Shown: positions 1,294-39,389 of the stretch, piece by piece | Layout of the letters: every line of letters begins with the position of its first letter | Position numbering within the stretch: position 1 is the first letter of the stretch | Assembly (NCBI GenBank): GCA_043809315.1 | Contig: JAZDDX010000027.1 | Span: 6,943-70,942 of the forward strand | DNA length: 64,000 bases | Reading direction: 5' to 3' | Source: Pseudomonadota bacterium | GTDB taxonomy: Bacteria > Bdellovibrionota_G > JALEGL01 > DATDPG01 | The notes under the pieces: generated by a model | What the model saw: only the letters and a program-made list of their open reading frames with translations | The model's database searches: none | Told to the model about the DNA's origin: nothing | Made by a program: the position numbers and the translations under genes

Positions 1294-4200
1294 TGGGATC
1301 CTCCCTTCGGCTGTTTCTCCTCCGCCGGAAGCTGGGGCGGGGGAGGGGCGGACGGTGTTGGGGCGGGACGGGGACGCTTCGGCATCGCCTGCAATTGTTT
1401 GATGTACATGAACACCTCGTGGTCGGGACGGATCTTCCCGCGCTCGACCGAGGCGAACTGACGGAAGTACTTGAGCGCGCTCTCGGCATCCTGCAACCGG
1501 TTCTGGTAGAGGAGCCCCATATTGAAGAGGGCGGCCGAATGGGTCGGGTCGGCATCCAGAATGGCCGCGAACGCCTGACGCGACTTCGCCACGTCGTTCG
1601 TCGCCTGATACGCCGTTCCGAGGTTCTCGATCGCCTGGAAATGAAGCGGATCAAAGTTCAAGACCTGTTGGTATCCGGCGATGGCCGCCGGATAGTTCGA
1701 GTACTTGAGGTACAGATTGGCGAGGTTGAGCCGGGGGTCGATCGCGTTCGGCGCCAGCTCGGAAGCTTTCTTGAACTCCGCGATCGCATTCTTCATCAGG
1801 TCCATCCCGATGTAAACGAGACCGAGGTTGTTGTACGTGTCGGCGGTCGCCGAGTTGATCTTCTTCCCTTTCTGAAGGGTCAGTTCCGCGAGATCGTACG
1901 CCTGGGTCTGATAGTAGATCAGGGCCAGATTGTTGATCGCCGAAATGCTCGTCTTGTCGACATTCAGAATTTCCCGGATCAGCGCGAGCGCCGATCCGTA
2001 GTCCTTCTTCCGCCGGTAGGCGATCGCGAGATCGTTCTTGAGCGCCAGGTTCGTTGGCTCCTTTGATAAGAGATCTCGGTAGATCGGGATGGCCCGGACG
2101 GCTTGTCCGGTCTCCGTAAGCGCGCGGGCAAGTTCCAAAAAGCCGACGTTCGTGCGCGATTGGACGAGAGAGGCGCTTTCAAACGAACTCGCCGCCTTAC
2201 CGAGGCGTCCCAACGTCCGGTAGGCGCGGCCGAGGGCCATGTACGCTCCGAAGTCCCTCGGGTCGGACTCGATCGCCAGGAGATTTTGGTCCATCTCACG
2301 GCGGAAGTCGGCCGGTGTGCGGCTCGAGGCTTGCCCCGCCGGGAGGGAGACGAACGGCTCACTGAGATGCATGGTGAGATCGACGTACCCCCGTCGCGGA
2401 GGATAGAGATCCGGTTTGAACTCGGTCAACGCCGCGTACGATTTAAGCGCCCACTCGTTGAAGACCTCCAGCTCGAACGCTTTCTTGATCGCCTTCTCGT
2501 AGGCCTCAACCGCTTTTTCCTCGATCGGGGCCGCCCGATTGGTGAGCTCTTGCTGATACATCTGCACCTCTTCGGGCGTGAGCTTCTTCGGGACCGGCGC
2601 GTTGAAGAGCGCCTGGCTGAACTCTTGGTAAATCACGCCGACGTGATGGAGGGCTGCCACCCCCATCTCCGGATCGCCGAAGTTGATGATGTCGAGGTAG
2701 CGGTCGCGCAGCTTCTTCAAGAGGAGCGCCTTCTGTTCGATCGCCCGAGTCAGGGCCGCCTGCGGCATTCGGAGACGGATCTCCCGGAAATCAGCCAACA
2801 TCGGTTTGGTCAGTTCGAGTGCAGCCTTCGCGGCATAGAGCCCAGCTCCCTTCACCTCGGGATCGGCCGCATACTGACGATGAACGTAGACGGCGCTCTG
2901 ATACGCTCGGGTCTCCCCCGCTTCGTCTTTCGTTTTTCCGAGCGCCTGTCCCAGCCGATAGTACGCTTCGATGACCCGTGCCCTCCGACTCGAATGCCGG
3001 CGCGGAAAATCCTTGAAGGCCGCGATGGCGTCGGTCCAGTGACGCTGTTTTTCATGGATGAGGGCGATCGAGAAGGCGATCTCCGCACTGTCTTTCGAGT
3101 TCGGATACCGTTTCAGGTGGGTCTCGTAACTCGCCAGGGCTCGCGGATACTCCCGAAGGTTCTCCTCGTACGTCCCCGCGTTGAAGAGCGCGTCCGCCGC
3201 GTATTTTCCCTTGGGGTCCTTCTCGGCGAGCAGTTCGTAATACTGGGCCGCATGGGCGTAATCGAGCTTGTCGTCGAAGTAGGTGGCCAGGGCCAGCGCC
3301 AGCTTGGAGACCATCTCGGAGTCCGGGTACTTGCGGAGGAACCGGTTCGACGTGCCCATCGCCTTTTCCGAGGCATCCGCGTTGATGTAATCGATGGCGG
3401 CGTTGAACAGCGCCTTGTCGGCGTACTTCGAATCGGGGTATTTTATCGCCAATTTTTCGAACATCTCGGCGGCCGCGACGTACTCTTTTTTATCCTCCGT
3501 CACCTTCGCCTTCTGGAAGATCGAACCCTGGATCAGCTCGAGCAGCTTCGCCCGGGTCTCGGCCGTCGCGTAGCTCTTGTCCGCGAGGAAGGTCTCTGCC
3601 CATTTTCCGAGGTTCTCCCAGTCCTTCCGGATGTTGTAGATGTCGAGGATCAGATCACGGGCCGTGTGGGAGGCCGGTGACTGCGGGTACTTTTTCACGA
3701 TGCCGAAGAATCCATCGCTCGCCCGCGAGAACTGATTGTAGTTATAAAGGAGCTGAGAACGCTGGAGCGCGATGTCGGGGACGCGAGGATCCTGGGGGAA
3801 CGAGCCGATGTAGGCCTCGTCAACTTCGATCAACCGCTGTGCGTAGACGGAGAGGAACAGCGGCTCGTAGTTGTCCTTTTGTTTGATCCCTTTGGTCTCG
3901 AGGTTCTTGTAATAAACCTTCTCGAGCTCGGTCAACGCGTCCATCTCACCGACGAGAGCTTCTTTGCGCCGTTTCCCGTTCTTGTCCGCCTTGGCGACAC
4001 GGTCGAACTCCGTGACCGCCTGGGCGTACATCTTGTTTTTGAAGAGCAGATCCGCATACAGGTAGCGGTTCTCGTAGGCGTTCTTGTGGTCGCCGAACCG
4101 ATCGAGGTATTTCCAGTAGTAGTTCAGCGCGGCACGTGTGTATCCCGCCGATTTCGCCGGATCGGTCTTCGCCGTCTGCTGCGAAAGCTCGTGATACTTC

Positions 4201-5399
4201 TTCGGGATGAACCGGGCGTAAACCTCCGATCGCTCGTAGGCGTACTCCCGCATCTCCGGATCGTTGGCCTGCCGGTACCAGATCGAGTTCTTGTCGTACA
4301 TGGAGATGAACTCCTCCATTTCCGACATCGCGTGCGTTAAGTCCTGGCTCTTGTCGTAGCAATCGACCAGCTTGGAATGGTATTTCGGCCGCTCCGCGCC
4401 GAACGGTTCGATCGCCATCAGCCGCCGGATGGTGGCGATCGCCTTGTCGTAGCGGGCCTGCTCGAAGTAGATGTTCGACAACTTCTGGAGGACCTTCTTC
4501 GCGTATTCCGGCTCGCCGATCGAAACGAAGTACTGCTGGGCTTCGTCGATCAGGCCGAGATCGGAATAAAAGATGACCAGATCCTTGAGAGCCTCATCCC
4601 GCAGCTCGAGTTCGCCACGGATCCCTTTAGAGCTCCGGACGACCTTCTGCATGACCTGGGTCGCCGGATTGATCTTCCCCTGGTTGTAGAAGCACCAGCT
4701 GAGCTTGTAGAGGGCGAAATTGTAGAGTTTGCTCGGTTCTTTGAGGACGATGTTGAAGGCGGCGATCGCCTCGTCGAAACGGCGGGCCATGAACTCGAGA
4801 TCGCCGATCTCCATATAGGAGTCGAGGCGAAATTTGCTCTTCGGGAACCTTGCGACCAGCTCCTTGAAGTACCCGAGGGCTTGGGAATCCCCGACCTCGG
4901 TGGCGTGGAACCCCGCCAGGAACATCACCTCGTCGAGCCGGTCGTAGGTCGAAGCGGTCTGAATGATCTGTTTGTACAGCGTGAAAGAAGCGGCGCCGGA
5001 GAACTGCGGCTCGACCGGCCTGACTTTCCGTTTTCCCTGGAACCACTCGTCGTACGCCTTGTTGTAAACTTCCATCTGCTGGAAATAGCGGGAACGGTTG
5101 TTCAGCCAGTACAACTCCGCGATCCGGAAGTACATGTCGGCCCGCCGATTGGGCTCGGTGGTCCTTTTCAAGAGCCGGGTCAGGATCGCGATCTCTTCCC
5201 GGATCTTCTGGGAGAGCGCTTGGTCGACCTGGTAGTCGGGAATCGAAAACGCCTCGAAGACCCCCGGTTTGAAGGAGCCGCGGCGGGGCTGCTCCTTCGG
5301 CGCGGCGGGGACTTTGGCCGGAGCCTCCGCTCCGCCGGCGGGGATCGCCAGGCTTAGCGTCAGGAGAAAACTCGTGAGCGCGATCCGCCTCGCGGTCAC
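1290..5399 (-). CDS. Very large secreted multi-TPR repeat protein (1369 aa), GltD/NfsD(AgmU)-like scaffold.
   Basis: The N-terminal signal peptide is MTARRIALTSFLLTLSLAIPAGGAEA. Tetratricopeptide-like repeats recur along the whole length (Y/F/A/L periodicity, many AxxxY/AxxxF motifs). It overlaps both neighbours by 4 nt. Confidence 0.85.
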   Translation of the reverse strand: MTARRIALTSFLLTLSLAIPAGGAEAPAKVPAAPKEQPRRGSFKPGVFEAFSIPDYQVDQALSQKIREEIAILTRLLKRTTEPNRRADMYFRIAELYWLNNRSRYFQQMEVYNKAYDEWFQGKRKVRPVEPQFSGAASFTLYKQIIQTASTYDRLDEVMFLAGFHATEVGDSQALGYFKELVARFPKSKFRLDSYMEIGDLEFMARRFDEAIAAFNIVLKEPSKLYNFALYKLSWCFYNQGKINPATQVMQKVVRSSKGIRGELELRDEALKDLVIFYSDLGLIDEAQQYFVSIGEPEYAKKVLQKLSNIYFEQARYDKAIATIRRLMAIEPFGAERPKYHSKLVDCYDKSQDLTHAMSEMEEFISMYDKNSIWYRQANDPEMREYAYERSEVYARFIPKKYHELSQQTAKTDPAKSAGYTRAALNYYWKYLDRFGDHKNAYENRYLYADLLFKNKMYAQAVTEFDRVAKADKNGKRRKEALVGEMDALTELEKVYYKNLETKGIKQKDNYEPLFLSVYAQRLIEVDEAYIGSFPQDPRVPDIALQRSQLLYNYNQFSRASDGFFGIVKKYPQSPASHTARDLILDIYNIRKDWENLGKWAETFLADKSYATAETRAKLLELIQGSIFQKAKVTEDKKEYVAAAEMFEKLAIKYPDSKYADKALFNAAIDYINADASEKAMGTSNRFLRKYPDSEMVSKLALALATYFDDKLDYAHAAQYYELLAEKDPKGKYAADALFNAGTYEENLREYPRALASYETHLKRYPNSKDSAEIAFSIALIHEKQRHWTDAIAAFKDFPRRHSSRRARVIEAYYRLGQALGKTKDEAGETRAYQSAVYVHRQYAADPEVKGAGLYAAKAALELTKPMLADFREIRLRMPQAALTRAIEQKALLLKKLRDRYLDIINFGDPEMGVAALHHVGVIYQEFSQALFNAPVPKKLTPEEVQMYQQELTNRAAPIEEKAVEAYEKAIKKAFELEVFNEWALKSYAALTEFKPDLYPPRRGYVDLTMHLSEPFVSLPAGQASSRTPADFRREMDQNLLAIESDPRDFGAYMALGRAYRTLGRLGKAASSFESASLVQSRTNVGFLELARALTETGQAVRAIPIYRDLLSKEPTNLALKNDLAIAYRRKKDYGSALALIREILNVDKTSISAINNLALIYYQTQAYDLAELTLQKGKKINSATADTYNNLGLVYIGMDLMKNAIAEFKKASELAPNAIDPRLNLANLYLKYSNYPAAIAGYQQVLNFDPLHFQAIENLGTAYQATNDVAKSRQAFAAILDADPTHSAALFNMGLLYQNRLQDAESALKYFRQFASVERGKIRPDHEVFMYIKQLQAMPKRPRPAPTPSAPPPPQLPAEEKQPKGGSQ

Positions 5400-31789: not shown

Positions 31790-33394
31790 CTATTCCTCTT
31801 CGGACTTGAGCGGGGCGATCACGACCGGTGTTCGGCTTTCCCCGGCCGGAGTGAACTCGTGCCCGGTCAGGTTGATCTGGTAGTGCTCCGTATGGAAGTT
31901 CGCCTGTTCGCGGACGACGATGCTCCGCCCCGAGCGGTTCTCGAGATCGAGCAGAAGGTCGTACTCCTCCTGTTTCAAGATCACCGAAACGTTGGGGTGC
32001 GCCACGATTTCGACGTTCCGGTGGGAATCCTTCTTTTCAATCTCGTGCGAAAGCTTTCGGAGGATGTCGTACGCGACCGTTCGTCTCGACCGGTGGAAGC
32101 CGCGTCCCTCGCAGTTCGAGCAGACCTCGCCCAGTTGCCGGGAGAGGTTCTCGCGTGTCCGTTTCCGGGTCATTTCGACGAGTCCCAGCTCCGAGATCTG
32201 GAGGACGTTTGTCCTCGCTTTGTCGTTGGCGAGCGCGTCTTCCAACGCCCGGTAGACCTTCTCGCGGTTCGTTTTCCGGTCCATGTCGATCGTGTCGAGG
32301 ATGATCAGCCCCCCGATGTTCCGGAGGCGGAGTTGCGCCACGATCTCCTTCACCGCTTCGAGGTTGACCTTGAGGATCGTCTCTTCCAGGTTTTTCGATC
32401 CGACGAACCTGCCGCTGTTGACGTCGATCGAGGTGAGCGCCTCGGTCTGGTCGATCACAAGATACCCGCCGGATTTGAGCCAGACCTTCCGGCCGAGGGC
32501 GCGGTCGATCTGCGGCTCGATCTTGTCGAAATCGAAGATCGGCTCGACCCCCTCGTAATGCGTGATCTTCCGTTTCCGTTTCGGCAGGAATTGTCCGACG
32601 AACTGTTTGATCTGCCGGAACGCGTTCCGGTCGTCGACCACCAGCTCATCGACATCATCGGTGAAGAAATCGCGGACCGATCTCATGACGAGGCTTAAAT
32701 CCTCATGGGCGAGGGAGGGGGCCTTCATCCCTTGCCGCCGGCGCAAGACTTTGATCCAGAGGCGTTCCAGGTAGGCGACTTCCTGCTGGATGTTCTTGTC
32801 CGGCTGTCCGGCCGCCGCCGTCCGAACGATGAACCCCCCGTCGGTGGTTTGAGTTGTTTTGACGAGGTCCTTCAGGCGCCGCCGTTCCTCCTCGCTCTCG
32901 ATTTTCCGCGACACTCCGATATGGGCGACCGTCGGCATGTAGACGAGGTGCCGACCGGGTAAGGAGACATGCGACGTGAGCCGCGCCCCCTTGGTGCCGA
33001 TCGGGTCTTTGGCGACCTGGACCAGAACATCCTGTCCCTCCTTCAGGAGATCCTGAATCTGGACACGCTGGGCGGGGCGCTTGCGCCGCTTTTCCTCCTC
33101 GACCTCTTTCTGGTTGAAAGCGTCGCCGTACTCCTCGAAAAAGTCGGTGACGTAGAGGAACGCGGCCCGCTCCAGGCCGATATCGACGAATGCCGCCTGC
33201 ATCCCCGGAAGGACCCGGACGACTTTGCCTTTGTAGATGTTTCCGACGATCCCGCGCTCACGTCGCCGTTCGATGTACAGCTCCGCCAGCTTGTCGTTTT
33301 CCATGACCGCGACGCGCACTTCCTGCGGCGTCGCGTTCAGCACTAAGCGAGAAGTAATTCCCACAGCCCGCCTCCATTCGTATGTGAGGCGCAA
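31790..33394 (-). CDS. rng: Ribonuclease G (RNase E/G family).
   Basis: S1 domain plus RNase E/G catalytic domain (ATPQEVRVAVMENDKLAELYIER, GLIILDTIDM). Confidence 0.85.
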   Translation of the reverse strand: MRLTYEWRRAVGITSRLVLNATPQEVRVAVMENDKLAELYIERRRERGIVGNIYKGKVVRVLPGMQAAFVDIGLERAAFLYVTDFFEEYGDAFNQKEVEEEKRRKRPAQRVQIQDLLKEGQDVLVQVAKDPIGTKGARLTSHVSLPGRHLVYMPTVAHIGVSRKIESEEERRRLKDLVKTTQTTDGGFIVRTAAAGQPDKNIQQEVAYLERLWIKVLRRRQGMKAPSLAHEDLSLVMRSVRDFFTDDVDELVVDDRNAFRQIKQFVGQFLPKRKRKITHYEGVEPIFDFDKIEPQIDRALGRKVWLKSGGYLVIDQTEALTSIDVNSGRFVGSKNLEETILKVNLEAVKEIVAQLRLRNIGGLIILDTIDMDRKTNREKVYRALEDALANDKARTNVLQISELGLVEMTRKRTRENLSRQLGEVCSNCEGRGFHRSRRTVAYDILRKLSHEIEKKDSHRNVEIVAHPNVSVILKQEEYDLLLDLENRSGRSIVVREQANFHTEHYQINLTGHEFTPAGESRTPVVIAPLKSEEE

Positions 33395-33403
33395 GGGTCA
33401 ACG

Positions 33404-33682
33404 TCAATGTCGAATTTCAAACTCGCCGTTCTTCGTATCGATCGGCGGTTTCCAATCCACTTCTACGTTGTCCACCCGTGCGCCGGGCGGCCCGTGCTGA
33501 CACCAGTGAAGAAGGTCGCGTAGCAAGCCTTCCTCTCCCTGAGCGTCGAGTTCCACAGATCCATCGGGGAGGTTTTGTACAAACCCTTGAATTTCAAGCG
33601 CCCTGGCGTGCTCACGAGCCGTAGCCCGAAAAAAAACCCCTTGCACTCTCCCCGTCACAACCGCGTGGAACCGCTTCACCAT
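33404..33682 (-). CDS. acyP: Acylphosphatase.
   Basis: VxGxVQGVxFR signature (VVTGRVQGVFFRA). Start at the MVKRFHA ATG. Confidence 0.75.
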   Translation of the reverse strand: MVKRFHAVVTGRVQGVFFRATAREHARALEIQGFVQNLPDGSVELDAQGEEGLLRDLLHWCQHGPPGARVDNVEVDWKPPIDTKNGEFEIRH

Positions 33683-33873
33683 GGGCGCAACCAAACCTGG
33701 AAAACGGGATCGAAAAGGACCCGTCTTCACAAACCTTTAACGGGCGGATTAAACACACAGTTCCCTGAAATGCCAACGAAAAACGACGAAACGGTCGAGA
33801 GATCGAAGGTTAGCATCTTGATTTTATTGCATTTTCTGGCTAGCGGGGGTAAAAGATCAGGCTCTCTATTAAA

Positions 33874-34407
33874 GTGATGAGGAAGGGAATCGCAATCGTT
33901 GTTCTTCTGCTTGGGTTGGGAACGGCCCGGGCCGAAGCTCTTCTGTATCAGGATCACGACCGGACCGGATCGCTCGCAGGGAACGGTGCGATCGGGTTCA
34001 CGCTCGGTCCGGACACGTTTCTCGTCGCCTCCGGCGTCGACTATTATTTTACCCGGCACTTCACGCTCGGTCCGTTGCTTCAGATGGGTGTCTCGGACGA
34101 CGTCTTCCTCGTTTCCCCTACCGTCGAAGCAAAGGGGGTCTTCGATCTCCCGGTGAACGGGTTCGGAAGGCGGGTAAAACCGTTCGTTCAGGGAGGGGCG
34201 GGTTTCACCTACGCGAACGTCGATCGTGCGGGGAAGAGCGATAACGCGATCGACTTCATGTTCAACTTGGGGTTCGGCGTCGACATCTATCTAACGACCC
34301 GTTTCGCTATGGGGAACAACATGTTGTTCAACGTCACCCCGACCCGTGTTTTCAGAGATCGCCTGATCTTCGCCTGGCAGTTCGTTTCGCTGAAGTATCA
34401 TTTTTAA
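33874..34407 (+). CDS. Small outer-membrane beta-barrel protein.
   Basis: Signal peptide MMRKGIAIVVLLLGLGTARA, beta-strand periodicity, and C-terminal ...VSLKYHF. Confidence 0.6.
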   Translation: MMRKGIAIVVLLLGLGTARAEALLYQDHDRTGSLAGNGAIGFTLGPDTFLVASGVDYYFTRHFTLGPLLQMGVSDDVFLVSPTVEAKGVFDLPVNGFGRRVKPFVQGGAGFTYANVDRAGKSDNAIDFMFNLGFGVDIYLTTRFAMGNNMLFNVTPTRVFRDRLIFAWQFVSLKYHF

Positions 34408-35022
34408 ATGACGACGTTTTATCTGATCCGGCACGGTCAAACCGATTGGAATGCGATCCGGAAGGTCATGGGTCGGACCGATGTCCCTCTGAATTCGGTC
34501 GGGGTTGCGCAGGCGAAAGATTTGAGCGGCGCGATGAGTCGGTATCCGATCGACGCCATCGTGACGAGCCCGCAACTTCGGGCGAGGCAGACCGCCGATG
34601 TCATCGGAGCCGGGAGGACGGTGCCGGTTCGGATCGAGTCGGCGCTTGCGGAGGTGGAGTTCGGACCCTGGGTGGGGATGGGGCTCACCGAGCTGAACCT
34701 CGATCCCGAATTTCATCTCTGGCTGGATGACCCGAACCCGAAAGGAAGCCACACGTTCGAACGGTCGGCCGACGTCCGGAAGCGAACGAGTGAGGTTCTC
34801 GAGCGTCTCGCGAGTGAAAATCCGTCCGGCACCTTCGCCTTGGTTTCGCATGCCGATCCGATCCGGGCGATGGTAAACTACGCCCTGGGTGGACCGGTCG
34901 AGGAGTTTCGAAGAATCCGGATCGTGAACGCTTCGCTGACCGTCGTGCTCAAGGAAGCGAACAAGTGGAGACTGACGTTGTTGAACTACAGGCCGGAGCC
35001 GGATCTCCGGGCCGAGATATAG
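34408..35022 (+). CDS. Histidine phosphatase family protein (phosphoglycerate mutase-like).
   Basis: RHG motif at the N-terminus (FYLIRHGQTDWN) and a conserved His in SHADPIR. Confidence 0.8.
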   Translation: MTTFYLIRHGQTDWNAIRKVMGRTDVPLNSVGVAQAKDLSGAMSRYPIDAIVTSPQLRARQTADVIGAGRTVPVRIESALAEVEFGPWVGMGLTELNLDPEFHLWLDDPNPKGSHTFERSADVRKRTSEVLERLASENPSGTFALVSHADPIRAMVNYALGGPVEEFRRIRIVNASLTVVLKEANKWRLTLLNYRPEPDLRAEI

Positions 35023-35035
35023 ATCAGGAGGAGTG

Positions 35036-35146
35036 ATGGGAAAGAAAGACAATCGGCGGAGCCGTAAAGTCAAACAAAGACGTAGACAGAAGAAGCTGAA
35101 GGCACGCATTCATCGCAAAAAAGAGATCGCCCGCAAGCGCAAGTGA
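35036..35146 (+). CDS. Unannotated 36-aa highly basic small protein (MGKKDNRRSRKVKQRRRQKKLKARIHRKKEIARKRK). The N-terminus resembles ribosomal protein bTHX.
   Basis: Strong SD AGGAGG 6-7 nt upstream and a start 13 nt after the previous stop. The TGA overlaps the GTG start of the downstream hydrolase gene (GTGA). Below the ORF-track size cutoff. Confidence 0.4.
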   Translation: MGKKDNRRSRKVKQRRRQKKLKARIHRKKEIARKRK

Positions 35147-35757
35147 TCCTTCCGTCCGCCGGCGCGGAGCTGGAGGCGGAGGTTTCCGCACCGAAGAAGA
35201 ATTCCGCACCGTTTCTGGTGTTGGCGCACCCTCACCCACAAATGGGGGGGGACATGCACAACAAGGTGATCGATACGCTCTTTACGCGCGCGATCGAAAA
35301 AGGGTGGGGGGCGCTCCGTTTTAATTTCCGCGGTGTCGGAGCGAGTTCGGGAACCTTCGACAACGGTGCCGGAGAAACCGACGACGTTCTGTCCGCGCTC
35401 TTATTCGCCTCGAAGTTCGCGGAACGACCGTACCGAACGCTCACGCTCGCAGGGTATTCGTTCGGTTCCTGGATGGCGGCGAAGGCCGCCGCGACGCTAC
35501 CTGAACTCGGGAAACTGGTTCTGATCGCGCCACCCCTCCGGGGGATGGATTTCTCGCCCCTGCAAACGGTTCGGCACCCCAAGTACGTTTTTGCTGCGGG
35601 AAAAGACGAATTTGTTTCGGTCGCCGAGCTCGAGGCTTGGTTCGCGCAATTGACCCCTCCCAAGTCGTTGCATCTGCTGGAAGAGGCGGATCACCAGTTC
35701 ATCGGGTGCACGTCGCGGTTGATTCGGGACGTTCTTCGGGTCGTCGACGCGAGCTAA
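35143..35757 (+). CDS. Alpha/beta hydrolase fold protein.
   Basis: HPHPQMGG oxyanion-like region, GYSFGSW nucleophile elbow (GxSxG), and a C-terminal His. Confidence 0.65.
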   Translation: MILPSAGAELEAEVSAPKKNSAPFLVLAHPHPQMGGDMHNKVIDTLFTRAIEKGWGALRFNFRGVGASSGTFDNGAGETDDVLSALLFASKFAERPYRTLTLAGYSFGSWMAAKAAATLPELGKLVLIAPPLRGMDFSPLQTVRHPKYVFAAGKDEFVSVAELEAWFAQLTPPKSLHLLEEADHQFIGCTSRLIRDVLRVVDAS

Positions 35758-35777
35758 AGAAAAACCCACGAGGCGGG

Positions 35778-35817
35778 GGCGGAGGGAGTCCGTGTGGTGT
35801 TCCCCTCTCGAGTTTTT
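35778..35817 (+). terminator. Possible intrinsic terminator: GC-rich imperfect hairpin followed by a TTTTT tract.
   Basis: GGAGGGAG...TCCCCTCTC followed by GAGTTTTTC, about 25 nt after the hydrolase stop. The stem is imperfect. Confidence 0.3.
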
Positions 35818-36987
35818 CAGGCGGGGGATTAAGGTCAGCCTCGTCGCCGCGGCCTCCTCCCGGCTCTCCTGCGGTTGGCGTGGATTTCAGCGTATTGTCC
35901 GCCCGCGCCGCCTATCGCCTTATTCCCTTCGGCGATCCCTCTTCGTCCTTTAAGATCGGACCTTGAGGTCTTCGGAGGGCGGGGCGCTTCGGTTCAACCC
36001 GAAACGATCCGCTCAGATCCTTCGTCTCCGCTTCAGAGCCTGTCTCCCTTACCTGGAGCCCACCGTTGCCGGCGGGATCCTCGTTTGAGGTTCATGGCCC
36101 CTTCGACATTTTCCGAATTCCCGCGGGTCCTTGACCCGTAATCCATCCGGCGGGCCCGGGGGGGGTAGATCCACCTCGGGAACCAGCGGGAATCCTTAAG
36201 AGGTATCTTTCAACCTCCGATGTCCTGGGGTGCCTTCCCCTTCGAAGCTTTCCGCCCGCGCGTCGATCCGGGTTCCCTTACGGGCTCCCGCTCCTCCCGT
36301 ACCGTTTGTCTCCGACGAACCGTCGAGTGGTTCGTCGGCTTGAAGTCCGGTTTCGGAGGGTTCATCCCGCCGCCGAGCCGGCGCGGTTGAAGGGGAATTA
36401 TTCCTTTCAACCCACCCGAGCTCCCTTGGGGTTTCGGGTCTCTCGGGTTCTCTCTCCGTCATCGCCGATCGGGTTTCACCCCGATCTGCCTCTCCTGCCG
36501 TTGCACCTCGCCCCCTCTTCGCAGAGGTTCGATCGAGAGTGCCGGCTTCAAAGGTTTGAGCCGCTGACGGTTTGGCGTTTCACTCAACCGAGTGCGCCGA
36601 CCCGTTGGACCTTTTTCACCAATCTCTTGGTGCCACATCGGACGGCCCCCGTCCGTGGGTTCGCGCTATGTAGCGAGCGTTTCTTCCAGGGTCAACGAAA
36701 GAGATGAAAAAAATTGAACGAACGAGATTCGTGCACGAATCTTCTTCGTGCATCATCGACAAGTGTGCTTCGTAATCGACGCGAAGCCCGGAGCGATACG
36801 ATTGGATACGGCTTTCCGAGCGATGATGGATTGAGAACACATGCCCGTTGGACGATCCTCGAATGTCGAGCGCGCGATTGTTAAGCCGGGGTCTTGCGAA
36901 AGATCGCTTGTCAGAGCCCCGAGTGGAGTGGAGTTGCGAGCGAAAATCAATTTGAACTGCGGAGTCTCCGTGGGAATTCGGAAGTCG

Positions 36988-37016
36988 TTGCTGTTGCTAG
37001 GTCGTTGCGATATATA
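36988..37016 (+). promoter_or_regulatory. Candidate sigma70-type promoter for tRNA-Val (TTGCTG, 17 nt spacer, TATATA).
   Basis: -35 TTGCTG at ~36988, 17-nt spacer, -10 TATATA at ~37011, about 10 nt upstream of the mature tRNA 5' end. Confidence 0.4.
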
Positions 37017-37026
37017 CGCGCGCCAT

Positions 37027-37101
37027 GGGCGATTAACTCAGCGGGAGAGTGCCATCCTCACACGGTGGAAGTCACTGGTTCGAATCCAGTATCGCCCACC
37101 A
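37027..37101 (+). tRNA. tRNA-Val (anticodon CAC), 75 nt including the encoded CCA.
   Basis: Manual fold. Acceptor GGGCGAT/ATCGCCC, U8, D-stem ACTC/GAGT, anticodon stem CCATC/GGTGG, loop CTCACAC (U33, CAC, A37), T-stem ACTGG/CCAGT, T-loop TTCGAAT, discriminator A, CCA. Confidence 0.85.
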
Positions 37102-37104
37102 ACT

Positions 37105-37518
37105 TCACTCCCCCATCACCTTGACGATCACCCGTTTTTTCCGCTGCCCGTCAAATTCCGCGTAATAGACCTGCTGCCAGGGGCCGAGGTCGAGTCTCCC
37201 CTTCGTGATCGGGACGATCACTTCGTGGCCGATCAAGAGGCTCTTCAAATGACTGTCGCCGTTCGATTCGCCGGTCCGGTGGTGGCGGTACCCCTCCCTG
37301 AAAGGGGCGAGTTTCTCCGCCCATTCGTCGATATCGGCGATCAGGCCGTCTTCGGCGTCGTTCACGTAAACCCCGGCGGTGATGTGCATCGCCGAGACGA
37401 GAACCATCCCCTCCTGGACCTTGGACTTCCGGACTGCCTCCTCCACGTCGTCCGTGATCCGGACGTACTCGCGGTGTTTTTCGGTGTTGAACGTCAGGTA
37501 CTCCGTATGAGATTTCAT
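37105..37518 (-). CDS. yjbQ: YjbQ family protein (secondary thiamine-phosphate synthase, UPF0047).
   Basis: Full-length similarity to YjbQ (ITDDVEEAV...[20 protein letters not shown]...GHEVIVPI). The stop lies 3 nt after the tRNA. Confidence 0.8.
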
Positions 37519-37556
37519 GGTCCCCCCTTTTAAGATAGGTTGGCTCCGGCGACAAC

Positions 37557-39389
37557 ATGCTTGAGGCGGTGCGAGCGCAGATCGATCGCGCCCCTTTATC
37601 CCCCGGAGTCTATATCTTCCGGGGGGAGGGGAAGAAAATCCTTTATGTCGGGAAGGCGATCCGCCTCCGGGATCGTCTGAAGGCGTACGTCCCTCCCGTC
37701 AAGGACGAACGCCCGTCGGTTCTCCTCCTGGTCCCCCAGATCCGGGAGGTGGAGTGGCTGATCACCGACACCGAGAAAGAGGCGATCCTTCTTGAAAACT
37801 CCCTGATCAAGACCCATCGACCCCGGTACAACATCTCGCTCCGCGACGATAAGTCGTACGTGAGCCTGCGTCTCACGAAACATGCCCATCCTCGTCTCTT
37901 CGTGACCCGGAACATCGTTCGGGACGGAAGCGAGTACTTCGGCCCGTACTCTTCCGCTGCCGGGGTTCGTCAGACGCTCAAACTGATTCAACAGCTCTTC
38001 CGCGTCCGGGATTGCACCGATTCTTTCTATTCTCAGCGCAGCCGCCCCTGTATGCGATACGAAATCAAGCGTTGCACCGCCCCGTGCGTCGCGCTCGTCA
38101 CCCCCGAGGCATATGCGGAGCAGGTGCGCCAGGCGTGCCTCTTCCTGATCGGTCAGAAAGACGAACTGGTCGCCCGTCTCCGGAAGGAAATGGAGGAAGC
38201 GTCGGAGGGGACGAGGTTCGAGGAGGCGGCGCTGCTGCGGGACCGCCTCGCCGACGTGGAGGGAACGCTGGAACCGCAGGAGGTGGAATCGCGCAGTGAC
38301 GAACGGGATGCCGACGCGATCGGTCTCTCGGGGGATGCCGACGCGACGCTGATCAAAGTCCTGAAAATCCGGAAGGGGAGGTTGATCGCGGCGGATGAGT
38401 TCTTGACGGAAGAGCCGGTCGGCTCCTCGTCCGAGATCGTCCGAGCTTTCTTTCAGGAGTACTACCTGGCCGATTATCCGGGGCACGAGATCCCCCCGCA
38501 GCTCCTTCTTCCGATCGACGTGGACGATCAATCCTCCTTTGAGACGCTCTTCGCGGAACGAGCGGGGCACAAGGTGACGCTCTTCGTTCCGAAACGCGGC
38601 GCCGCCCAACGACTCCTCGTCCTCGCGGAGAGGAATGCGGCGTCGGCGTTCGGCGAGCGGAAGCGGAAGACGGAAAAAAACCAGCGGGCGATGAGTGAAC
38701 TTCAATTCAAGCTCAAGCTGCCGCGTCTCCCGAAGCGGATCGAAGGGTATGATATTTCGAACCTCCAAGGAGCAGAGGCCGTCGGATCGATGATCGTCTT
38801 CGTCGACGGCGAACCGGACAAAACGAAATACCGGCAGTTCAACATCCGCTCGGTCAAAGTGCCGGACGACTTCGCCATGCTCCGGGAGATGTTCGAACGC
38901 CGATTCCGAAAGATGAGCGCCGAGAACCGCCCCGACCTGATCCTGGTCGACGGTGGAAGGGGGCAGCTCCGCCAGGCGACGGAGGCGCTCCGGGAGGCGG
39001 GGATGACCGATCTTCCGATCGCATCGATCGCCAAAGAGCGAGAGGCCCAGCCGGACCGGATCTTTCTTCCGGGACAGAAGAACCCGATCCTCTTTCCCCG
39101 CTCATCCCCGGTCCTGCATCTTCTCCAGGGCGTTCGGGATGAGGCGCACCGGTTCGGAATCACCCGTCACCGCCGTGCTCGAAGCAGAGCGACGATCGGA
39201 TCGGTCTTGAACCGGATCCCGGGGATCGGGCCGAAGCGACAGCGCGCGCTCCTGCGGGCGTTCGGGAGCGTCGACGAAATCTCTCGAGCGCCGCTTGAGG
39301 AACTCACGAAGATCTCCGGGATCACGGCTGCGGCGGCTCAATCGATCGCGAAGTTTTTTGCCAAGACGGAGGCTCCGGGGGAGGAATGA
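37557..39389 (+). CDS. uvrC: Excinuclease ABC subunit C.
   Basis: N-terminal GIY-YIG ([19 protein letters not shown]), UvrBC domain, RNase H-like endonuclease domain, and C-terminal HhH. Confidence 0.95.

Follow-up and report, generated by a model that had tools for sequence, protein, structure and literature searches.

Within a 64,000-nucleotide stretch of contig JAZDDX010000027.1, from a Pseudomonadota bacterium placed by GTDB in Bdellovibrionota_G (the whole stretch is hereafter the window), positions 35036..35146 of the plus strand hold a 36-codon gene for an ultra-basic protein, which we assign to a previously undescribed family. The gene lies between genes for a histidine phosphatase family protein and an alpha/beta hydrolase, and was recognized by direct reading of the open reading frame (ORF), by orthologues, by purifying selection, by a family profile and by an AlphaFold2 model. 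From its ATG start codon (35036-35038) it encodes a 36-aa product, MGKKDNRRSRKVKQRRRQKKLKARIHRKKEIARKRK, in which 21 of the 36 residues (58%) are Lys or Arg, with a pI of ~12 and a net charge of about +18.6. A Shine-Dalgarno (SD) box, AGGAGG, was read directly at 35026..35031 of the plus strand, 4 nt before the ATG. At the other end the plus-strand sequence GTGA (35143..35146) joins the TGA stop of the small gene (35144-35146) to the GTG start of the hydrolase (35143-35145) in a putative termination-reinitiation site. A preliminary description made from the sequence had reported an unannotated 36-aa ORF with a strong SD, about 55% Lys/Arg and a stop codon overlapping the GTG start of the next gene; the ORF, the AGGAGG box, the missing annotation and the overlap were all confirmed, and recounting the basic residues gave the 58% above.

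An ORF listing of the window gave a 37-aa form of the small gene beginning at GTG 35033. Because all homologues open with MGKKDN, read from the ATG, and the preceding codon varies, we take ATG 35036 as the true start; purine-rich SD-like boxes were found 4-9 nt 5' of the ATG at all homologous loci. Neither the 36-aa nor the 37-aa product was found as an exact entry in a collection of 15 billion proteins, whereas both flanking proteins are present in that collection under consecutive NCBI accessions (MFH1263388.1 and MFH1263389.1), indicating that the source record carries no annotation for the small gene.

Conservation of the small gene

As starting relatives we used the contigs of hydrolase homologues with 50-69% identity, the loci being labelled L001, L002 and so on and the proteins P0007 and so on. 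On two ENA contigs (P0007), the gene caller had independently given a 36-aa gene with a 4-nt overlap onto the hydrolase, and the remaining contigs contained an uncalled gap of 115-120 nt ahead of the hydrolase, irrespective of which gene lay upstream. In the DNA of L001 and L002 we read 36-aa ORFs whose products start with MGKKDNRR and whose stop codons form a GTGA junction like that of the window. Scans of genome and metagenome collections, queried with an alignment of the peptide, contributed L004-L013, and wherever the DNA of a relative was available it carried an orthologue of 34-36 aa in syntenic position.

When the codons of nine copies from the close clade were compared, amino-acid identities were 55-86% against nucleotide identities of 54-76%, with third codon positions taking 623 of the 1097 differences (57%). 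The ratio of nonsynonymous to synonymous substitution rates (dN/dS) was 0.04-0.17 where computable, synonymous sites being saturated in most pairs. The peptide was 83% and 69% identical in relatives whose hydrolases were 69% and 56% identical, and in low-GC relatives it retained 65-78% identity, against 39-40% for the hydrolase, 36-48% for the histidine phosphatase and 72-83% for RNase G. Judged from these alignments, the conservation of the peptide matches that of RNase G, a housekeeping enzyme and the most strongly conserved protein in the neighbourhood, and lies far above that of the histidine phosphatase or the hydrolase.

We considered whether the ORF might have arisen by chance, or might owe its conservation to an antisense gene, an RNA element or a frameshifted hydrolase N-terminus, given that the genome is GC-rich and that long minus-strand shadow ORFs (34291-35109 and 35024-35239) overlap the gene. 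Only the plus-strand frame, however, shows this codon-position pattern and dN/dS, identity is higher for amino acids than for nucleotides, and the frame is retained at a GC content of 41-42%, at which shadow ORFs caused by high GC vanish. The small gene also occurs without the hydrolase, and a six-frame hidden Markov model (HMM) scan found a single copy in the window, with 44.3 bits for this ORF and at most 7.4 bits elsewhere. An origin by chance or by borrowed conservation therefore has a negligible probability, and we are very confident that the small gene is a genuine, selected protein-coding gene of an undescribed family. The preliminary description had named conservation in related genomes as the check that would decide the matter; the frame proved to be kept in all relatives examined, under purifying selection, which speaks decisively against a reading frame that close relatives do not conserve.

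The protein family and its predicted fold

Searching 1.84 billion representatives by phmmer with the single peptide gave one match (P0122, E 2e-5), and a profile was needed because a single 36-aa query is weak in power. With the profile, 145 proteins were recovered at E<=1, and iterating it brought in dozens more; the family comprises roughly 200 sequence clusters, with about 170 distinct sequences among the matches listed. Members range from 34 to 118 aa, and the named ones are all called 'hypothetical protein'. The named sources were metagenome-assembled genomes (MAGs) of Myxococcales, Polyangia, 'Deltaproteobacteria' and 'Acidobacteriota', and two genome matches were MAGs of Bdellovibrionales. 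The family spans Bdellovibrionota and Myxococcota, which are predatory, developmentally complex lineages.

Scans of Pfam, NCBIfam, PHROGs and PADLOC found no model that meaningfully matches any family member, the top PHROG match (E 0.005) falling within the low-complexity tail of a member 89 aa long, and tblastn of 50,697 phage records found no match to the family. A phage or defence origin was rejected on the PHROG, PADLOC and phage-genome searches. Signature strings of the family were not found in the searchable literature. On sequence comparison, the product of the small gene belongs to an undescribed family of Bdellovibrionota- and Myxococcota-type bacteria that is conserved independently of its neighbours. 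It is well defined and strongly selected and has no Pfam or NCBIfam model, and its profile could be taken up by annotation pipelines, which systematically overlook tiny polybasic proteins.

The conserved part of the family is formed by the N-terminal 28 residues, with the consensus MG-x-G-DNRR-[ST]-P-K-M-RRK-xx-Q-x-KLKARIKR, followed in longer members by a variable Ala/Lys/Pro tail. M1, D5 and K11 are invariant across the family, and G2, N6, R7, Q18, K20, L21, K22 and R24 are conserved in at least 94% of sequences (N6 and Q18 in at least 96%). In total, eleven positions reach at least 94% conservation, and at these Lys and Arg do not replace each other. The AlphaFold2 model, built with 81 sequences, had a mean predicted local distance difference test (pLDDT) score of 90.8 and started with a coil over residues 1-5 and a single turn of helix, followed after a break at [ST]-P (residue 9) by a helix from 10 to 35. 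The predicted anatomy is thus a near-invariant N-terminal cap (G2, D5, N6, R7 and K11), the [ST]-P break and one long basic alpha-helix, along which M12, L21 and I25 form a narrow hydrophobic seam.

Relation to tiny ribosomal proteins and candidate functions

The first 11 residues of the peptide had been said to resemble ribosomal protein bTHX, and as a likeness of strings this is real, with 6 ungapped identities in 11 positions. The window peptide begins MGKKDNRRSRK, and the family members P0125 and P0225 begin MGRGDNRRTPK and MGKGDRRHSNK, compared with MGKGDRRTRRGK in bTHX; the string shared in part (MGKKDNRR or MGRGDNRRT versus MGKGDRRT) is so short that it does not tell homology from convergence. 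For the comparisons, the bTHX sequence was verified against the PDB, and the Msm, Fjo and Bbu bS22 sequences and Msm bL37 were taken from the PDB and the supplement of PMC10618245. At E<=10, the Thx models PF17070, TIGR04560 and NF011339 matched none of the window peptide, 12 other members, P0125 and P0225, whereas Thermus bTHX, as positive control, scored 64.6, 54.5 and 66.7 bits on the three models. In an unfiltered hmmsearch of the family profile against tiny ribosomal proteins, compared with composition-matched shuffles, bTHX scored 2.0 bits, a value matched or beaten by 23-25% of the shuffles (1240 of 5000 in one run). Only residues 1-8 aligned, shuffling the tail alone left the score undiminished, and the conserved C-terminal half of bTHX (GK-I/F-x-G-x-Y/F-G-K-x-RP-R/K) had no alignable counterpart in the family.

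If the peptide were a diverged true homologue of bTHX, sitting in the head of the 30S subunit as Thx does in Thermus, the similar-looking N-termini, with MGK-x-D-(x)-RR-[ST] in common, would be explained, as would the tiny size, the very basic composition, Gly at position 2 and the probable removal of the initiator Met in both. Such descent is hard to reconcile with the failure of the Thx models even on P0225, which starts MGKGDRR, when real bTHX reaches 54-67 bits, or with a profile score so readily equalled by shuffles and confined to eight residues. A profile search of PDB chains that include Thermus, plastid and mitochondrial bTHX returned none of these, and the iterated profile, run over 5.8 billion proteins, never reached a Thx-annotated protein. 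bTHX is also differently built, with 24-27 aa and a GK..G.YGK.RPRK C-terminal half, GKIWRGTYGKYRPRK, which is unmatched in a helical family of 34-50+ aa that has a long helix at this place in the model. The resemblance claimed at the outset therefore holds for the strings and gained no statistical support, and homology, which was not borne out, is in our estimation highly unlikely.

Similar comparisons were made with bS22 and bL37. No family member matched COX24_C (PF08213) or NF047430 (ribo_bS22) at E<=10, or the model that recognizes bL37; as positive controls, Msm bS22 scored 46.2 and 62.6 bits on the first two and bL37 scored 52 bits on its own. The family profile scored -4.5 to -0.4 bits against bS22 (Msm, Cac, Fjo and Bbu) and 3.5 bits against bL37, scores that 62-92% and 55% of the shuffles reached, respectively. 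Searches of the PDB with the peptide and the profile returned no ribosomal chain, the only match, to hnRNP H (E 0.71), being due to chance. Homology with bTHX, bS22 and bL37 was rejected on these shuffle-controlled profile scores and the positive-control library scans. A model match nevertheless does not define the functional class, because Fjo and Bbu bS22, which are proven ribosomal proteins, likewise match no Pfam or NCBIfam model; Msm bS22 itself fails to detect them (~0 bits). At such small size, functional equivalence lies beyond what sequence tests can exclude.

The traits of the bS22 type are found in the window peptide, with its 36 aa, 58% Lys+Arg, pI of ~12 and modelled helix at 10-35. 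Taken together, the window peptide and bS22 of both types (the Mycobacterium COX24_C/NF047430 type and the Flavobacterium/Borrelia type) fall within 30-36 aa, about 58-61% Lys+Arg and a pI of ~12 or higher. In both cases the protein is essentially one, possibly kinked, alpha-helix (modelled for the window peptide), and its gene is stand-alone or variably placed, routinely missed or called 'hypothetical' by automated annotation, and highly conserved within its lineage. The bS22 proteins of Borrelia and Flavobacterium, of 30-31 aa with about 61% Lys/Arg and a pI of 12.7, were unannotated or 'hypothetical' until cryo-electron microscopy density revealed them, and the authors of the Borrelia study predicted further such proteins in other bacteria. 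Accepted cross-phylum members of bS22 are as dissimilar to one another (19% three-way identity, ~0 bits in phmmer) as the family is to bS22. In contrast to the family, which is known from sequence, bS22 is ribosome-bound, in the h44/h45/h27 pocket of 16S rRNA at the subunit interface, and it lacks the near-invariant G-x-x-D-N-R-R-[ST]-x-K cap and Q18, with no model match or profile similarity between the two beyond composition. Two oddities were noted in the supplement of PMC10618245, both probably typographical or text-extraction errors: Msm bS22 is printed with HKRLL where the PDB chains have HRKLL (the PDB-verified form was used here), and a bS22-like string is listed as the 'Fjo bL38' query.

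Very basic single helices that fill pockets of ribosomal RNA (rRNA) are also found in eL41 and mS38, which occupy the h44/h45 pocket, and in mycobacterial bL37. These proteins have no sequence relationship to the family and belong to another domain of life or lineage, and they show that unrelated sequence families can serve the role of filling an rRNA pocket. To our knowledge, tiny single-helix proteins with more than 55% Lys/Arg and a known structure are almost all fillers of rRNA pockets (bS22, mS38, eL41, bL37 and bTHX).

The position-specific conservation and the strict use of Lys or Arg point to specific contacts with a conserved partner rather than bulk charge, and we propose that the protein would bind a conserved, structured nucleic acid by sequence-specific contacts. 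The likeliest partner would be rRNA, in which case the peptide would act, like bS22, bTHX, bL37 or eL41, as a ribosomal or ribosome-associated protein, one particular to its lineage. Conservation at housekeeping level, strict Lys/Arg usage, SD boxes at every locus and a stand-alone, variable placement suggest RNA binding, probably with ribosome association. By analogy with the proteins above, we put the chances of an RNA-binding or ribosome-associated mechanism at about even, and more tentatively the peptide may be a new ribosomal protein specific to Myxococcota and Bdellovibrionota. A bTHX-like tiny basic ribosomal protein is, on the same analogy, the plausible leading functional hypothesis. 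bS22, bL37 and bL38 were likewise overlooked tiny proteins that turned out to be real ribosome components affecting antibiotic access and decoding, and the small gene supplies a concrete candidate, open to testing, for a lineage-specific protein of the ribosome or one that binds RNA. Literature searches for ribosome structures of Myxococcus or Bdellovibrio, and for bTHX together with Myxococcus, found nothing relevant.

Several observations weigh against a ribosomal role. No family member was seen in a ribosomal-protein or translation operon, the closest association being an L28 gene ~5.7 kb away in L014. Beyond composition, neither the solved ribosomal chains nor bTHX, bS22 and bL37 show a sequence relation to the family, and Foldseek of the AlphaFold2 model against the PDB returned nothing, a search that is uninformative for a single helix. 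The named carriers are MAGs throughout, and in the longer members the tails, rich in Ala, Lys and Pro, are also similar to DNA-binding tails of the histone-H1 kind.

This last likeness, with the extreme positive charge and the missing link to translation operons, would fit a nucleoid-associated protein that binds or condenses DNA in the manner of protamine or histone H1 and is unrelated to the ribosome, tails such as AAKAAKKPAAPSKKK being similar to those of H1 or AlgP-type proteins. Charge-driven condensers, however, do not resemble a protein whose 28 N-terminal residues are conserved with an invariant Asp5, with Asn6 and Gln18 at no less than 96% and with a strict choice between Lys and Arg. 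The H1-like tails are missing from the clade of the window and variable elsewhere, and solved tiny proteins of like composition are, partly by general knowledge, overwhelmingly rRNA-bound. We accordingly regard a nucleoid function as unlikely, and keep the RNA-binding, ribosome-associated interpretation in front of it.

Gene neighbourhood and a candidate structured RNA downstream

The histidine phosphatase gene upstream of the small gene (34408..35022, plus strand; 204 aa; MFH1263388.1; Pfam His_Phos_1, E 3.6e-52) ends 13 nt before it and probably belongs to the same operon. The hydrolase gene downstream (35143..35757, plus strand; 204 aa; MFH1263389.1, an exact NCBI protein match) matches Pfam Hydrolase_4, Abhydrolase_11 and Abhydrolase_1. 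Its top NCBIfam match is the Myxococcus type IV pili motility protein SglT, at 54.9 bits where the cutoff is 300, a weak hint of myxobacterial kinship. Mapping the neighbours by blastp of all loci against the window proteins placed both the histidine phosphatase and the hydrolase beside the small gene in the window, L001, L005 and L007, the hydrolase without the phosphatase in L002 and L006, and the phosphatase only in L004, L008 (on a contig too short to judge) and L012. Neither neighbour was recorded for L009-L013, a group in which L012 also appears although it is listed with the phosphatase. Directly upstream of the small gene, the phosphatase was found in the window, L001, L004, L005, L007, L008, L012, L016 and L020. 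For more distant family members, the gene follows skp/bamA, a GCV_T gene or a PilZ gene, or stands by itself between serS and ddl. Across loci the small gene is the constant element and the neighbours change.

The hydrolase has no SD-like box before its GTG in the window and its start codon lies inside GTGA, so that its translation by termination-reinitiation is probable. In the subclade of the window, ribosomes terminating on the small gene would reinitiate at GTGA to translate the hydrolase, whose output would then depend on translation of the small gene; such coupling would be secondary and particular to this lineage, the peptide itself serving another purpose. The junction recurs in L001, L002, L006 and L007/L020, and a 4-nt overlap is present on the P0007 contigs (at least five independent assemblies). 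It is lost in L005, with a gap of 63 nt, and in L016, with a gap of 7 nt. In L004 kdpA follows the small gene and there is no hydrolase, in L012 the small gene is likewise intact with no hydrolase downstream, and in L020-L022 the 36-aa gene is intact beside a coupled hydrolase cut to a 50-aa remnant that still starts at GTGA. The remnant (L020 6108-6260; L022 3452-3604) looks like hydrolase decay in progress. The coupling to the hydrolase proposed in the preliminary description is thus present as a GTGA overlap, yet it is a feature of one subclade, and the small gene outlives the loss of the hydrolase.

The repeated junction and a downstream gene without its own SD are also what would be expected of a functionless leader peptide or upstream ORF, serving solely to drive or regulate translation of the hydrolase, and in these two respects the locus resembles known coupled upstream small ORFs of the ATGA/GTGA type. 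Unlike a mere leader, the peptide experiences strong purifying selection and has diverged less than the hydrolase, it is kept where the hydrolase is absent or reduced to a remnant and where the overlap has opened into a gap, and more than 100 family members occur in unrelated contexts. We therefore rejected a leader role as the sole function of the peptide, since the peptide is selected and persists without the hydrolase, and consider it very improbable.

Immediately beyond the hydrolase, an apparently empty interval of 1.27 kb extends to a tRNA-Val gene, and comparative folding identified within it a candidate structured non-coding RNA of ~897 nt on the minus strand (35764-36660). The region is collinear with L001, L012 and L020/L022, with homologues at L001 5616-5747 (reaching the contig end), L012 2220-3111, L020 6262-7171 and L022 ~3610-4515. 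Between the window and L001 it is 82.6% identical over 132 nt, which is higher than the coding genes, and the candidate always lies 370-400 nt from tRNA-Val. RNAalifold gave an energy of -250 kcal/mol, compared with -94 +/- 6 for column shuffles (z = -26). In three sequences, 75 of the 240 predicted pairs were compensatory, against 3-13 when partners were slid by 1-3 columns, and 90.8% of cells held standard pairs, against 38-46% with slid partners.

The minus strand was assigned because G.U cells outnumber A.C cells (58 versus 16), because a promoter-like box, TTGACC-N17-TA.A.. (36695-36667, minus strand), is invariant and lies immediately 5' of the closing helix, and because a hairpin with a T-run (35777-35755, minus strand) stands at the 3' end of the candidate. 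A transcript of ~0.9 kb is predicted, with its +1 near 36661 and its 3' end near 35760. The 5' and 3' ends pair, GNRA-like loops are numerous and YCGAAG motifs recur; the RNA is modular, since a one-module covariance model finds a second internal module in each copy. Rfam 15 contained no match to the candidate at gathering thresholds or at E<=1, and a scan of viral contigs returned only 20-25-nt seed matches. The candidate may represent a new class of large 'ornate' bacterial non-coding RNA, and is arguably more interesting than the small gene beside it. Its link to the peptide is positional only.

This proximity bears on a further reading of the peptide, as an RNA-binding protein of the arginine-rich motif (ARM) type that acts on a non-ribosomal RNA, either as an RNA chaperone or as the partner of a specific structured RNA. 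ARM peptides, such as those of lambda and P22 N or of HIV Rev and Tat, are short Arg/Lys-rich helices in which a few specific polar residues are able to read an RNA hairpin, and the window peptide resembles them in composition and in its predicted single basic helix. The large structured RNA with its GNRA-like loops lies 7 nt past the hydrolase stop, ~620 nt past the small gene, and its homologues in L001, L012 and L020/L022 are likewise downstream of the small gene. ARM peptides differ in being segments of larger phage or viral proteins, whereas the product of the small gene is a complete cellular protein of a family with no PHROG, PADLOC or phage-genome match. The one-module covariance model found no copy of the RNA in the other small-ORF loci, neither it nor blastn detecting one near the small gene in 12 further loci, and the RNA, to the extent that it has been detected, is much narrower in distribution than the peptide family. 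The adjacency may also be mere shared synteny with tRNA-Val, yjbQ and uvrC. We judge a non-ribosomal RNA target to be a minor contender, of about the same low probability as a nucleoid function. That the peptide is the dedicated partner of the ~897-nt RNA, the two forming a previously unknown ribonucleoprotein in this subclade, is considerably more doubtful still, and rRNA stays our preferred partner for the peptide.

The clade-conserved neighbourhood covers positions 31790-39389 of the window and runs from RNase G and an acylphosphatase (minus strand) through an outer-membrane-protein-like gene of 177 aa, the histidine phosphatase, the small ORF and the hydrolase (plus strand) to tRNA-Val, yjbQ (minus strand) and uvrC (plus strand). 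In some relatives MoaE, ThiS and Fe-S genes are inserted upstream, and in L002 a PEGA protein and a Ser/Thr kinase take the place of the structured RNA. An interpretation of the RNA region as a broken protein gene was rejected, as the low-GC copy has 11-21 stops per frame and the 'ORF' in L020 is junk. Public gene calls of 251 aa and 104 aa (L020 6414-7169 and 7217-7531; also in L022), neither with a Pfam match, cover the RNA region, and their translations are Ser/Arg/Pro/Leu-rich junk, so that these are probably false gene calls.

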